NCBI GenBank assembly: GCA_000146045.2 | Contig: BK006949.2 | Span: forward strand, 884,067 to 948,066 | Length of the DNA stretch: 64,000 bases | Reading direction: 5' to 3' | From: TPA_inf: Saccharomyces | Taxonomy: Eukaryota | Shown: piece after piece, positions 48,723-57,070 of the stretch | Numbering within the stretch: the first letter of the stretch is position 1 | Layout: each line of letters opens with the position of its first letter | Translations under genes and position numbers: made by a program | Notes under the pieces: model-generated | What the model was told of the DNA's origin: nothing | The model's database searches: none | The model's input: only the letters and a program-made list of their open reading frames with translations

Positions 48723-49967
48723 ATGAACTTTATCTTCTTACAGTTTCAACATCTTGTGACCTGATGATTTTCCTCAAATGAACTTTTGCGTTTTCATTGA
48801 GAAAATTTCATTATACTTTATTTTTTTTATAAATGGGTACCAAGGCATTAAATATAGATCTGGTTTACTAATCTGAAGAAATTGTTTTCAACCACATAAT
48901 TTGTGCAATTTGGCGCTATACAAAGCCCATGTTGGCTACATTAGTCTTTGAATCCTTTAGATTGCCTGAATCAATAGCTCATTCAAAATATTTTGGACAA
49001 TCGATAGTTAACTGTAACATGTGCTGCTATATAGTGGCAATCTAGATGCATGTATCTTATATGATTAAGTATAAAAGAACCACAGCAAAGCTAAACGTAA
49101 ATAAGTAGTTTAGAAAGTACTGGATATGAGTTAAGAATCTGTTAATTGAGCATGACATGAAAATTTTGTATTAAAGCAATATGAGTCGTCACATTAAATA
49201 TATGAAACTACGGGAATTACCATCATATTGGTCATGATTAATAATAAACCAATCAGCATGTTTTTACCTCTATTATATTAGTCTTGGACCCGTATTCAAC
49301 CTTCATTAATATTATCTTTTTACCTTTGTTCATAAACACAATACATTGTTTTTGCAAAATATAACAAAAAAGATTAAGGAAGAGGACCATGTACACTACG
49401 ATCTTACTTTTGAAATAGAATTTGTTTATTTTTTCAAGATGTTAAACGAAGATGGTGAGTAATATTCACAAAACATTGTAAAAATATTACTTGCTTCATT
49501 CTGCGAATTGTTCAAACCCGTAAAGAAAATTTCTAGTATATGATATATGCATAATATCAATAGCTTTACAAAAATAGAATCCGAAAACTATCTAGAAGTT
49601 TACTCGTTTCTCAAGTTTTATTTAACAAAACATAGACGAGCTTTATTTCGTGTGAAGAAGTGAAGAAGCTTTAACAAAACTGTATTTCTAAAAGAACGTT
49701 ACTATACAATAAATTATAAAACTGCATTAACCAATGAAAAAAAGCACTATTAATCGAAACTCGAATATGCAATATTGTTAATGTAAATTAAGCTATCGGT
49801 CCGTTTATTTTTCTATCGAAAAGCGGCTTAGTTAGAATGGTTGATAAACGGCTGCGCTTCGTAAAAAGAAATGACATCTTGGAACTACTTTAAATAGAAG
49901 TTTAAATCTCATGATCATGCTCATCTGTTTGTACAACACATAAGCTTCACCGTCAGACATATATGCA

Positions 49968-51599
49968 ATGAAGAGTACTTTGAGTTTAACTTTATGTGTT
50001 ATATCGCTTCTATTAACCCTTTTTCTGGCGGCCTTGGATATTGTTATAGTGGTTACTTTATATGATACAATTGGCATTAAGTTCCATGACTTCGGCAATA
50101 TTGGTTGGTTAGTTACTGGATATGCTCTTTCTAATGCTGTTTTCATGTTATTATGGGGTCGCTTGGCCGAAATACTTGGTACAAAGGAGTGCTTAATGAT
50201 TTCTGTTATTGTATTTGAAATAGGGTCTTTGATTTCTGCTCTTTCGAATTCAATGGCGACTCTGATTAGCGGAAGAGTCGTTGCTGGGTTTGGAGGAAGT
50301 GGAATTGAATCACTTGCTTTTGTAGTTGGAACATCCATTGTCCGAGAAAACCATAGAGGAATTATGATAACGGCACTCGCTATATCGTATGTCATTGCAG
50401 AGGGAGTCGGGCCTTTTATTGGTGGTGCATTTAATGAACATTTGTCTTGGAGATGGTGCTTTTATATAAATCTTCCAATCGGTGCGTTTGCGTTCATAAT
50501 ATTGGCATTTTGTAACACATCTGGAGAACCACATCAAAAAATGTGGCTACCATCAAAAATCAAAAAAATTATGAACTATGACTATGGCGAATTATTGAAA
50601 GCAAGTTTTTGGAAGAATACATTTGAAGTACTTGTATTTAAACTAGACATGGTTGGGATTATTTTATCTTCAGCAGGCTTTACACTACTGATGTTAGGTC
50701 TTTCATTTGGTGGAAACAACTTCCCATGGAATTCGGGTATCATTATTTGCTTTTTTACCGTGGGCCCTATCTTATTGTTACTATTTTGTGCTTACGACTT
50801 TCATTTTCTGTCATTATCGGGGCTTCACTATGACAACAAGCGGATCAAACCGTTACTGACATGGAATATTGCCTCAAATTGTGGCATATTTACAAGCTCC
50901 ATAACAGGATTCCTTTCTTGCTTTGCTTATGAATTACAGTCTGCTTATTTAGTCCAGCTTTATCAACTAGTATTTAAAAAAAAGCCTACATTAGCGAGTA
51001 TACATCTTTGGGAACTATCAATTCCAGCTATGATTGCAACTATGGCCATAGCATATCTAAATTCAAAATATGGCATCATCAAACCGGCAATTGTTTTTGG
51101 TGTGCTTTGTGGGATTGTTGGATCTGGTTTATTTACGCTAATCAATGGCGAACTCTCTCAGTCAATAGGTTATTCAATTCTCCCAGGAATAGCTTTTGGT
51201 AGTATTTTCCAAGCAACGTTATTAAGCTCCCAGGTGCAGATAACATCAGACGATCCAGACTTTCAAAACAAGTTTATTGAAGTCACAGCTTTCAACTCGT
51301 TCGCCAAATCCTTGGGCTTTGCGTTTGGAGGGAATATGGGGGCAATGATATTCACTGCATCACTCAAAAACCAGATGCGCTCTTCCCAATTAAACATACC
51401 ACAATTTACGTCTGTAGAAACACTTTTAGCGTATAGCACAGAACATTATGATGGCCCCCAATCTTCACTATCAAAGTTCATAAACACAGCTATCCATGAC
51501 GTTTTTTACTGCGCCTTAGGATGCTATGCTCTTTCATTCTTCTTTGGAATATTCACTTCGAGTAAGAAAACAACAATATCAGCCAAAAAGCAACAATGA
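49968..51599 (+). CDS. SGE1: SGE1 (YPR198W), MFS drug:H+ antiporter (crystal violet / cationic dye resistance), 543 aa
   Basis: 543-aa protein with ~14 predicted TM helices and an MFS motif region (GRLAEILGTKE). Confidence 0.9.
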   Translation: MKSTLSLTLCVISLLLTLFLAALDIVIVVTLYDTIGIKFHDFGNIGWLVTGYALSNAVFMLLWGRLAEILGTKECLMISVIVFEIGSLISALSNSMATLISGRVVAGFGGSGIESLAFVVGTSIVRENHRGIMITALAISYVIAEGVGPFIGGAFNEHLSWRWCFYINLPIGAFAFIILAFCNTSGEPHQKMWLPSKIKKIMNYDYGELLKASFWKNTFEVLVFKLDMVGIILSSAGFTLLMLGLSFGGNNFPWNSGIIICFFTVGPILLLLFCAYDFHFLSLSGLHYDNKRIKPLLTWNIASNCGIFTSSITGFLSCFAYELQSAYLVQLYQLVFKKKPTLASIHLWELSIPAMIATMAIAYLNSKYGIIKPAIVFGVLCGIVGSGLFTLINGELSQSIGYSILPGIAFGSIFQATLLSSQVQITSDDPDFQNKFIEVTAFNSFAKSLGFAFGGNMGAMIFTASLKNQMRSSQLNIPQFTSVETLLAYSTEHYDGPQSSLSKFINTAIHDVFYCALGCYALSFFFGIFTSSKKTTISAKKQQ

Positions 51600-53940: not shown

Positions 53941-54081
53941 GCATGCAAGTACATAAATAGGCGAAGGTATCTGACCGTAATAATCTTCACGCCATCTATA
54001 TAAATAAATGAAAAATTCGGCTTTTAACTTATATATTAACAATAAGAAAGACAATGTTGCGCTGTGCTTACAGGAAGAATA

Positions 54082-54966
54082 TTATAATTTTGACGAAAAG
54101 ACCTTAATGAAATGCTTGAGGCTAATTAAAATATCAAAATTAGAACACGTAGCACTTTTCTTAAGTTCTGTTCCCAAAATTTCAAGGTCAAATGTGTTAA
54201 CCTTTGGATGCACTTTCATAAAACTCCAAATATCCATCGCACTTAATAGGACGTCCCCTCCAAAAGCATCCACTGTATAATACTGTCTTGGATGGAAACC
54301 CTGCCTAATCACCATGCTCGCTGCCGCTGTTTCTATTGCATTAGTGTTTTCAGTAATGAAATTATTTGGCTCCTTTATTTCAGTCCCACTAAACTCCAAA
54401 AAGGTACTATCAAGTTCCCCATTAAAGTCACCAAACGTATGAATCTCACTCATTGCATCATTTAGAAAAGAATAGCCTGGTATGTCATTTGAGAGATTCG
54501 TACAGCCTATGGGATAGAAGGACCGATCAAAGGAATTCAACGGTGACGGCACTGTACAATTCTTTCCAACACACACTGAGAGCAGTTGCTTGAAAAATAC
54601 GTAGCATTGTTGTATTTCAAGGGAATTATATGTGGAGGAAAGAACCACACTACCATCGAGAGTGTTACATGTGGGCGGTTTTTCTTCACAACAGGCCTTA
54701 CTAATGTTCCGTTCATCAGAAGGCATGTTCCTCTCAGTCAAAAGACTCCTCAACATAAAATGGAGAAGTTCATTTTCCTTCTTTAATATGTGAATTTGAT
54801 CATTTGTTACCGTTAGCTGAGCTTCTTTCTTCTCTAGTTCTTCTAATCTTTCCAACTTTCGTTTTCTAAATGCGTTTTGGGATGCTCTAAGTTGCGCAGC
54901 TCTCTTATTTTTAGGTGGAGTAAGTGAAGGCTTCCTGCCGCCTTTTCTTCCACGCGGTTTTGCCAT
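54082..54966 (-). CDS. ARR1: ARR1 / YAP8 (YPR199C), bZIP transcription factor activating arsenic-resistance genes, 294 aa
   Basis: N-terminus MAKPRGRKGGRKPSLTPPKNKRAAQLRASQNAFRKRKLERLEELEKKE: a Yap-family basic region followed by a leucine zipper (ORF-track adds 4 codons). C-terminal Cys residues are present for arsenite sensing. Confidence 0.9.
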   Translation of the reverse strand: MAKPRGRKGGRKPSLTPPKNKRAAQLRASQNAFRKRKLERLEELEKKEAQLTVTNDQIHILKKENELLHFMLRSLLTERNMPSDERNISKACCEEKPPTCNTLDGSVVLSSTYNSLEIQQCYVFFKQLLSVCVGKNCTVPSPLNSFDRSFYPIGCTNLSNDIPGYSFLNDAMSEIHTFGDFNGELDSTFLEFSGTEIKEPNNFITENTNAIETAAASMVIRQGFHPRQYYTVDAFGGDVLLSAMDIWSFMKVHPKVNTFDLEILGTELKKSATCSNFDILISLKHFIKVFSSKL

Positions 54967-55212: not shown

Positions 55213-55605
55213 TCAACCACTAACAATCAATTTAAGGTTACTCTCTCTACAATGGGTCTCCCAAGCGTAAAAACCTCCAACGAGGATGCAACTCTCAAAC
55301 TTACTTGTAATATCTTCTTCTTGTAAGTAGGTTTCGAATTTAGCAGCTACTTTTGGTCCCCTATTCTTGGACCCAGTACAATGAAATATCACTTTGACGA
55401 ATTGAGAACTTGAGAAAGTATCGGATAAACCTTTAATTAATTGATTCAGTTGCTTCTCTGTAATCTGTGCTGTTACTGGAACATGCCAAGCGTTTGTAAT
55501 ATGATCACGTGCAAAATCTTCTCTTCGAAGATCAACAACTTGAAAATCCTTCCTCTGATTTTCAATTAGGCCCTTGAGTTGCCTAGACGTTATGAAACTT
55601 ACCAT
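55213..55605 (-). CDS. ARR2: ARR2 (YPR200C), arsenate reductase of the Cdc25/rhodanese fold, 130 aa
   Basis: 130 aa. Active-site HC(X)5R loop HCTGSKNRGP. Confidence 0.9.
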   Translation of the reverse strand: MVSFITSRQLKGLIENQRKDFQVVDLRREDFARDHITNAWHVPVTAQITEKQLNQLIKGLSDTFSSSQFVKVIFHCTGSKNRGPKVAAKFETYLQEEDITSKFESCILVGGFYAWETHCRESNLKLIVSG

Positions 55606-55682
55606 TACGCTTGCTGGATTGTCAAGTTTTCCTCAATATTAGTTTGTTATACATTAGTTTTTATACCGACTTTTCAAAAGTG

Positions 55683-55697
55683 TTGATTTAAAATCAA
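55683..55697. promoter_or_regulatory. Second perfect palindrome TTGATTTAAAATCAA (7-1-7) sharing the TGATT/AATCA half-sites, 31 bp from the Yap8 element
   Basis: Directly visible. Its function is inferred only from half-site similarity and location. Confidence 0.35.
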
Positions 55698-55727
55698 ATT
55701 TTGAATGCTCTTAATTATCTTTTTGTT

Positions 55728-55740
55728 TGATTAATAATCA
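55728..55740. promoter_or_regulatory. Yap8 response element TGATTAATAATCA (6-1-6 palindrome) in the ARR2-ARR3 divergent promoter
   Basis: Exact match to the published 13-bp Yap8/Arr1 binding site (established knowledge). It lies between ARR2 (minus strand) and ARR3 (plus strand). Confidence 0.8.
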
Positions 55741-55855
55741 ACTTTAGCGGCAACGCTCCTTACATAATTATAATGTAAACGGAAAAGAATATAAATGAAT
55801 GCTCTCGTTGTAATTCAAGAGAACCCAACCAACAAATCATCAGGTTAGTAGAATA

Positions 55856-57070
55856 ATGTCAGAAGATCAAAAAAGTGAAAATTCGGTACCTTCTAAGGTT
55901 AATATGGTGAATCGCACCGATATACTGACTACGATCAAGTCATTGTCATGGCTTGACTTGATGTTGCCATTTACTATAATTCTCTCCATAATCATTGCAG
56001 TAATAATTTCTGTCTATGTGCCTTCTTCCCGTCACACTTTTGACGCTGAAGGTCATCCCAATCTAATGGGAGTGTCCATTCCTTTGACTGTTGGTATGAT
56101 TGTAATGATGATTCCCCCGATCTGCAAAGTTTCCTGGGAGTCTATTCACAAGTACTTCTACAGGAGCTATATAAGGAAGCAACTAGCCCTCTCGTTATTT
56201 TTGAATTGGGTCATCGGTCCTTTGTTGATGACAGCATTGGCGTGGATGGCGCTATTCGATTATAAGGAATACCGTCAAGGCATTATTATGATCGGAGTAG
56301 CTAGATGCATTGCCATGGTGCTAATTTGGAATCAGATTGCTGGAGGAGACAATGATCTCTGCGTCGTGCTTGTTATTACAAACTCGCTTTTACAGATGGT
56401 ATTATATGCACCATTGCAGATATTTTACTGTTATGTTATTTCTCATGACCACCTGAATACTTCAAATAGGGTATTATTCGAAGAGGTTGCAAAGTCTGTC
56501 GGAGTTTTTCTCGGCATACCACTGGGAATTGGCATTATCATACGTTTGGGAAGTCTTACCATAGCTGGTAAAAGTAATTATGAAAAATACATTTTGAGAT
56601 TTATTTCTCCATGGGCAATGATCGGATTTCATTACACTTTATTTGTTATTTTTATTAGTAGAGGTTATCAATTTATCCACGAAATTGGTTCTGCAATATT
56701 GTGCTTTGTCCCATTGGTGCTTTACTTCTTTATTGCATGGTTTTTGACCTTCGCATTAATGAGGTACTTATCAATATCTAGGAGTGATACACAAAGAGAA
56801 TGTAGCTGTGACCAAGAACTACTTTTAAAGAGGGTCTGGGGAAGAAAGTCTTGTGAAGCTAGCTTTTCTATTACGATGACGCAATGTTTCACTATGGCTT
56901 CAAATAATTTTGAACTATCCCTGGCAATTGCTATTTCCTTATATGGTAACAATAGCAAGCAAGCAATAGCTGCAACATTTGGGCCGTTGCTAGAAGTTCC
57001 AATTTTATTGATTTTGGCAATAGTCGCGAGGATCCTTAAACCATATTATATATGGAACAATAGAAATTAA
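55856..57070 (+). CDS. ARR3: ARR3 / ACR3 (YPR201W), plasma-membrane arsenite efflux transporter (ACR3 family), 404 aa
   Basis: 404-aa polytopic membrane protein, N-terminus [35 protein letters not shown]3-family conserved Cys-containing TM region (…[20 protein letters not shown]…). Confidence 0.9.

Follow-up and report, generated by a model that had tools for sequence, protein, structure and literature searches.

Yap8 is a model for very narrow bZIP specificity and is described as having one 13-bp site and two target genes. To our knowledge, all quantitative work on its binding has used probes that bear this canonical Yap8 response element (Y8RE) alone. The published element, TGATTAATAATCA, lies in the ACR2-ACR3 promoter (PMC7261193, PMC3865217, PMC6545440) and is attributed in these later accounts to Wysocki 2004 and Ilina 2008. 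As Ilina 2008 is cited there, the TTAATAA core is, besides the flanks, crucial for Yap8 binding (PMC3865217, PMC6545440), and mutation of Y8RE alone abolishes the activation of ACR3 (PMC3865217). Extended TGATT half-sites constitute the contact model of Yap8, the N-terminal tail of the protein contacts the A/T-rich 6-bp flanks, and activation by Yap8 is retained when the central base of Y8RE is changed from A to C (MUT3; PMC7261193). According to the same source, the Yap8 of K. lactis accepts several 7-bp cores between TGA flanks (Veide Vilg 2014, in PMC7261193). Groups that work on Yap8 still described a single Yap8-binding element in a research paper of 2022 and a review of 2024.

The window analysed here, a stretch of 64,000 nucleotides, carries the S. 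cerevisiae arsenic-resistance cluster ARR1(YAP8)-ARR2-ARR3. The divergent ARR2-ARR3 promoter in this cluster is 250 bp long (55606-55855) and contains, in addition to Y8RE, an ARR2-proximal palindrome that we call P1. Judging from the comparisons described below, P1 is probably another Yap8-type response element of this bidirectional promoter, and one that evolution has maintained. Of the two divergent target genes, ARR2/ACR2 (ORF at 55213-55605, minus strand) encodes an arsenate reductase of 130 aa with a rhodanese fold, and its orthologues at the Saccharomyces loci are marked PF00581 Rhodanese. ARR3/ACR3 (ORF at 55856-57070, plus strand) encodes an arsenite efflux transporter of 404 aa, the product showing 99% identity to S. 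cerevisiae Arr3p and PF01758 in the protein search. The bZIP activator gene YAP8/ARR1 is on the minus strand (54082-54966, with the ATG at 54966 and the ORF reaching to 54978); its product of 294 aa gave a 100% match with a PF00170 bZIP domain in the protein search and is presumed to be the activator that binds both dyads.

Some further features of the cluster were observed. Its distribution is patchy and subtelomeric. An ORF of 90 aa on the plus strand, opposite the 3' end of YAP8 (54008-54280), is most likely spurious. In S. kudriavzevii the first ATG of the 404-aa ARR3 ORF is missing, with GCG or GTC at this place (window 55856-55906; L002 3950-4003; also L004 and L005), and the Arr3 of this species is annotated with 388 aa, its start Met being M17 of S. 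cerevisiae (55904). DNA conservation in S. kudriavzevii is nevertheless high over the 48 nt between the two start positions.

P1 is a perfect 7-1-7 palindrome of 15 bp, TTGATTTAAAATCAA (55683-55697, no strand assigned), with its 13-bp dyad TGATTTAAAATCA at 55684-55696. The 13-bp Y8RE (55728-55740, likewise without strand) extends to a perfect 7-1-7 palindrome as well, TTGATTAATAATCAA, at 55727-55741. Both palindromes had been claimed in the earlier note and were found where it placed them. Their distance was given there as 31 bp, a value that is a difference of coordinates; the true gaps are 30 nt between the 15-mer of P1 and the 13-mer of Y8RE and 29 nt from one 15-mer to the other, for a centre-to-centre distance of 44 bp. 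P1 and Y8RE are the same 15-mer except for a symmetric A/T swap beside the centre. Their TGATT/AATCA arms are identical, and the two symmetric mismatches lie in the core only (TTTAAAA in P1, in place of the YRE-like TTAATAA of Y8RE), the dyad symmetry being retained despite these differences. Together the two sites form a direct repeat of 19 nt with 84% identity in the window. The 6-bp flanks are A/T-rich at P1 (AAGTGT with 4/6 A/T and AATTTT with 6/6) and at Y8RE (TTTGTT and ACTTTA, 5/6 each).

A scan with TATAWAWR places both dyads between two consensus TATA boxes. One of these, TATAAAAA (55658-55665, minus strand), faces ARR2, with 17 bp between it and P1 and the ARR2 ATG about 53 bp downstream, while the other, TATAAATG (55790-55797, plus strand), faces ARR3 and is located 48 bp from Y8RE. 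The order along the promoter is ARR2, TATA box, P1, a 29-bp linker (55698-55726), Y8RE, TATA box and ARR3. P1 is 85 bp from the ATG of ARR2, a plausible distance for a core-promoter element, and its TTTAAAA core consists of A and T only, so P1 might be taken for a core-promoter or chromatin element of ARR2, such as a nucleosome-excluding tract or a TATA-like box, and not for an activator site. This reading appears very improbable to us. P1 fails to match TATAWAWR in the promoter scan, and ARR2 is already served by TATAAAAA, which is unchanged throughout the Saccharomyces alignment; the comparison with more distant yeasts, given further below, weighs against it too. Apart from the TATA boxes and the two dyads, an exact direct repeat of 10 nt, TGAATGCTCT, occurs just past P1 (55702-55711) and just past the ARR3 TATA box (55796-55805). 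It was considered as a further element and dropped, because conservation of the first copy fails already in S. paradoxus, and the repeat is hence probably due to chance.

The pattern TGATTNNNAATCA, which describes both dyads, has exactly two matches in the 64-kb window, and both are in this promoter (0.32 expected). Two or more matches anywhere in the window were obtained in 3 out of 100 shuffles. When the 250-bp intergenic region alone was shuffled 20,000 times, at least one such dyad arose with a probability of 0.0015. Within 1 kb upstream of ARR3, TGA-N7-TCA is matched at only two places, one of them P1. Mere similarity to Y8RE is not evidence, since matches with up to two mismatches occur in the window at chance level (9 against 5.8 expected). 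What makes P1 distinctive is that its differences from Y8RE are symmetric and confined to the core, with the dyad and both TGATT arms retained. Elsewhere in the window, TGATTAATAATAA (49235-49247) is a copy of Y8RE with one mismatch, in which one TCA arm is broken; it is intergenic, about 730 bp upstream of an ORF of 543 aa (49968-51599), and probably inert because the arms are reported to be essential.

We aligned the promoter among five Saccharomyces alleles, namely S. cerevisiae, S. paradoxus CBS432 (L001) and three from S. kudriavzevii (IFO1802, L002; ZP591, L004; the VIN7 subgenome, L005). P1 and Y8RE are both present in all five, so that the conservation of both palindromes in other Saccharomyces ARR promoters, named as informative in the earlier note, holds for S. 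paradoxus and S. kudriavzevii. No column is variable in P1 (0/15) or in Y8RE (0/15), compared with 13/29 in the linker, where variation in the promoter is highest, and 33/178 in the remaining promoter (Fisher test on variable columns: P1 versus linker, p = 0.0013; P1 versus all other columns, p = 0.04). The two sites thus appear as paired, matching footprints in invariant runs at 55681-55698 and 55726-55744. In two S. kudriavzevii alleles a 1-bp deletion in the linker changes the spacing of the centres from 44 to 43. Taken alone, the conservation within Saccharomyces is a modest signal (p = 0.04), because the alleles are closely related, with a mean column identity of 93%. Comparison of S. kudriavzevii ZP591 with S. 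cerevisiae gives nucleotide identities of 88% for the promoter, 84% for YAP8, 90% for ARR2, 92% for ARR3 and 79% for the ARR1-ARR2 spacer; the promoter is therefore about as conserved as the coding regions and more conserved than the spacer.

Two other points concern these species. The Yap8 of S. kudriavzevii is only 74-76% identical to ScYap8, although the Arr3 proteins of both species share one cluster at 90% identity; Yap8 evolves much faster than its targets and binding sites (88% identity in the promoter). Moreover, the S. paradoxus allele and the three of S. kudriavzevii share TTACGTAA, a perfect 8-bp palindromic element of the Yap/Pap1 type (YRE-A), and the window reads TTACATAA at the corresponding place (55760-55767). 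It thus seems that a consensus Yap-family site, placed between Y8RE and the ARR3 TATA box, was lost in S. cerevisiae.

The decisive evidence for P1 is conservation at long range. Outside Saccharomyces, the closest Arr3 in the protein search is that of Lachancea fermentati (77% identity). Upstream of the ACR3 ATG in this species (L008), TGATTTTAAATCA is found at -159 and TGATTGATAATCA at -118, giving a spacing of 41 bp, and no other TGA-N7-TCA exists in the 1 kb upstream of ACR3. The former is the exact reverse complement of the P1 13-mer and the latter is a variant of Y8RE. When the S. cerevisiae promoter is compared with 729 bp of upstream DNA from L. fermentati, the longest common word is a 14-mer, TTGATTTAAAATCA, and this word is P1. 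The L. fermentati promoter is otherwise essentially unalignable (mean column identity 43% in a seven-way alignment, in which 14 columns are invariant and 6 of these are located in P1). The linker between the two L. fermentati dyads contains CTACGTAAT.

In L. fermentati, ACR2 is a decayed pseudogene located between YAP8 and ACR3 (L008 3450-3740; tblastn E = 2e-8). It has 33% identity to ScArr2, contains in-frame stops and a frameshift, and is not called as a gene. The tblastn match required a word size of 2, a more permissive cut-off and composition-based statistics switched off, and a search with Arr2 at an E-value cut-off of 0.01 gave no match in L. fermentati. The P1-like dyad beside this pseudogene is intact, which indicates that P1 is not merely an ACR2-specific leftover and also speaks against a core-promoter element of ARR2.

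Two dyads also recur in other yeasts. An ENA contig (L015), with YAP8, ACR2 and ACR3 in the same order as in S. cerevisiae, has TTGATTCTAAATCAAATTTGAA in the ACR2-proximal position and TTGATTTTTAATCAA at a spacing of 60 bp, and its ACR2-proximal site shares the right arm and flank of P1, AAATCAAATTT, with S. cerevisiae. Full pairs are therefore found in L. fermentati and L015, where the chance of at least one dyad per promoter is 0.0027 and 0.0015, respectively. Two other yeast loci have one full dyad and a partial second copy. In L013, TGATTTTTAATCA is accompanied at a spacing of 34 bp by TGAGTAAAAATCA, which retains TGA-N7-TCA and only one TGATT arm, and in L012 the full dyad TGATTAAAAATCA is accompanied by a degenerate copy, TTATTTCTAATCA, 37 bp away from start to start. 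Both L012 copies are within a direct repeat of 32 nt with 84% identity (81-149), indicating that this pair arose by duplication; local duplication is thus one way in which Yap8-type sites multiply. Lachancea nothofagi (L010), which has a Yap8 orthologue, possesses TGATTGATAATCA only, as a single site, so at least one lineage can do without a second site. Two ACR3 loci lack a neighbouring YAP8, those of L014 and Torulaspora globosa (L011), and no such dyad was found upstream of ACR3 in either.

Orthologue alignment confirms that the genes adjoining ACR3 in L. fermentati, L. nothofagi, L012, L013 and L015 are genuine Yap8 orthologues, which keep the KPRG..GGR N-terminal tail, R22, Q25, R27 and Q30 as well as the arsenic-binding Cys132/137/274. 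Apart from the Saccharomyces clusters, the protein search with Yap8 returned a single cluster, at 46% identity, which we infer to be the Yap8 of L. fermentati. A metagenome scan with the Yap8 alignment recovered nothing but S. cerevisiae, its promoter being identical. Across these lineages the arms, T-TGATT...AATCA-A, are constant and the three central positions drift. All four bases occur beside the dyad centre, and the cores include TTTAAAA, TTTTAAA, TTCTAAA and TTTTTAA. Constant arms around a variable centre are what published work ascribes to Yap8. A core that changes between G/C-containing arms (TGATT/AATCA) that are kept is the opposite of what a TATA box or an A-tract would predict. L015 carries the TGATTT half-site of P1 in both of its dyads, and L012 and L013 carry it in the dyad nearer to ACR3, which suggests that this half-site belongs to the natural repertoire of the family.

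These distributions also bear on whether P1 could be a non-functional relic, for instance of an old local duplication of Y8RE, its presence in Saccharomyces being explained by young alleles and the matches elsewhere by coincidence. The 84% direct repeat formed by P1 and Y8RE would fit such an origin, as would the L012 repeat with its demonstration that sites arise by duplication, the overall identity of 88-95% among Saccharomyces promoters, and L. nothofagi, which manages with a single dyad. We nevertheless regard a relic as quite unlikely. The exact P1 13-mer persists in L. fermentati despite an unalignable promoter and a decayed ACR2, full TGATT-N3-AATCA pairs are present in both L. fermentati and L015 at the low per-promoter chances given above for one dyad, a partial second copy has been retained in L013 and L012, and within Saccharomyces the neighbouring linker has varied at nearly half of its columns and P1 at none. 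P1 is not a chance look-alike; it is a selectively maintained Yap8-type dyad.

Conservation of this kind demonstrates constraint and names no binder, and P1 may accordingly be a conserved site for a factor other than Yap8, either another Yap bZIP such as Yap1, as the earlier note had put forward, or a dimeric reader of the TGATT dyad, for example a repressor or an architectural factor. The departure of the P1 core from the TTAATAA reported as crucial for Yap8 would agree with this, but its weight is lessened by the exchangeable central base (MUT3), by the other cores that KlYap8 accepts and by the TGATTT half-sites of L012, L013 and L015. As to Yap1, none of its motifs (TTA[C/G]TAA, TGACTAA, TGAGTAA, TGACAAA and TTACGTAA) was found by scanning the 250-bp promoter, and so none of the known Yap1 motifs is in P1; furthermore, Yap1 cannot activate ACR3-lacZ (PMC7261193). 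For these two reasons the suggestion of a Yap1 site is unsupported. For other factors, the parts of P1 that are conserved are exactly the TGATT/AATCA arms that are specific for Yap8, with the core drifting between them; the dyads accompany an adjacent Yap8 orthologue and are missing at ACR3 loci without an adjacent YAP8; and Yap8 was, as of 2022, the only transcription factor known to regulate ACR3 (PMC9041338). A binder other than Yap8 is therefore unlikely in our view, though less so than a relic or a core-promoter element.

As for Yap8 itself, the odds that it is the binder of P1 seem somewhat better than even, and that P1 is functional appears likelier still. The earlier note had proposed P1 as a possible second Yap8 site of lower affinity, which could make arsenite induction cooperative or graded. 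The invariance of P1 in the five Saccharomyces alleles next to a variable linker, together with the recurrence of two dyads beside Yap8 orthologues, supports the proposal as regards a second site, while a lower affinity of Yap8 for P1 and a contribution of P1 to expression would follow from the model below.

With P1 read as a Yap8-type element, a Yap8 homodimer would recognise its two extended TGATT half-sites in the same manner as at Y8RE. The binding is probably weaker than at Y8RE, as we propose from the base beside the centre, which is T instead of A in both halves. P1 and Y8RE may then work together, between the two TATA boxes, as an upstream activating sequence with two sites, from which Yap8 activated by As(III) and bound to both dyads would recruit co-activators to both core promoters. 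P1 would be an auxiliary site and insufficient by itself, because mutation of Y8RE alone is reported to abolish ACR3 activation. From the comparative data, it is most likely that the bidirectional promoter with two sites is ancestral and that P1 has an auxiliary role in it. Among the lineages the centres lie between 34 and 60 bp apart, a variation that speaks against a rigid, phase-dependent cooperativity. About 4 helical turns would fit the 41-44 bp found in Saccharomyces and L. fermentati, but not the 34, 37 and 60 bp of other lineages, and a helical phasing of the two dyads is hence not claimed.

A bolder version of this model seems unlikely, about as much so as a binder other than Yap8. 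It holds that the two dyads form an ancestral switch with non-equivalent sites, in which P1, with a distinct affinity or partner, sets the threshold, the cooperativity or the directionality between ARR2 and ARR3. The partner could in that case be a Yap8 complex that bridges both dyads or a TGATT-dyad-binding protein. If true, such a switch would overturn the textbook view of one Yap8 site for two genes.

Returning to P1 as an auxiliary Yap8-type site, we see it as an incremental refinement and a modest extension of a known regulatory system, with no new mechanism. It has some consequences even so. ChIP signals assigned to the 'ACR3 promoter' may be the sum of two sites, and dose-response as well as the balance of ARR2 and ARR3 output may depend on the two-site architecture. 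From sequence comparison, the natural half-site repertoire of Yap8 would be wider than thought, with TGATT followed by A, T, G or C, and the constant part of Yap8 sites would be the arms and not the YRE-like core.

The literature provides some indication that specialists are aware of a second motif. 'Y8RE1 and Y8RE2 motifs' are named, undefined, in figure legends for a PRACR3 ChIP amplicon (PMC7261193, 2020; bioRxiv 614503). We mapped the primers of this amplicon to 55605-55755, an interval that includes exactly the P1 and Y8RE dyads, and because it spans both, the amplicon cannot resolve P1 from Y8RE. The published EMSA probe ACR3short maps to 55709-55759, with P1 outside. A full-text search turned up no yeast paper with the P1 sequence (TGATTTAAAATCA, TTGATTTAAAATCAA or GATTTAAAATC), and beyond the legend mentions no definition, binding test or mutation of 'Y8RE2' or P1 was found in the searched literature, a set that lies outside the founding Yap8 papers. 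A literature search for Arr1 ChIP-exo gave nothing usable. The view that only the first site had been characterised agrees with the literature examined, and the two legends qualify it. The class of element is known, and P1 adds a new or unpublished member to it.

The closest described system is Y8RE itself. Like Y8RE, P1 is a 13-bp dyad in which TGA and TCA are separated by a 7-bp core, with extended TGATT/AATCA half-sites in both arms, and it is located in the same ARR2-ARR3 promoter adjoining YAP8. It also shares the outer T...A pair that completes a 15-bp palindrome, the central A, the A/T-rich flanks and the invariance in Saccharomyces. P1 differs by its TTTAAAA core, by its ARR2-proximal position and, as far as the cited accounts of the Y8RE mutation go, by being insufficient for activation when Y8RE is mutated. 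The variant Y8REs of KlACR2/KlACR3 in K. lactis, in which the cores vary and the TGA flanks are kept, follow a rule that P1 fits as well (PMC7261193); however, as described there from Veide Vilg 2014, these variants were tested with KlYap8 and not with ScYap8. Another comparable case is TRX2, a stress-gene promoter that likewise has two bZIP dyads a few helical turns apart (two TTACTAA, Yap1; PMC7261193). In TRX2 the motifs are of the 7-bp YRE class and the factor is Yap1, whereas P1 has no YRE core.
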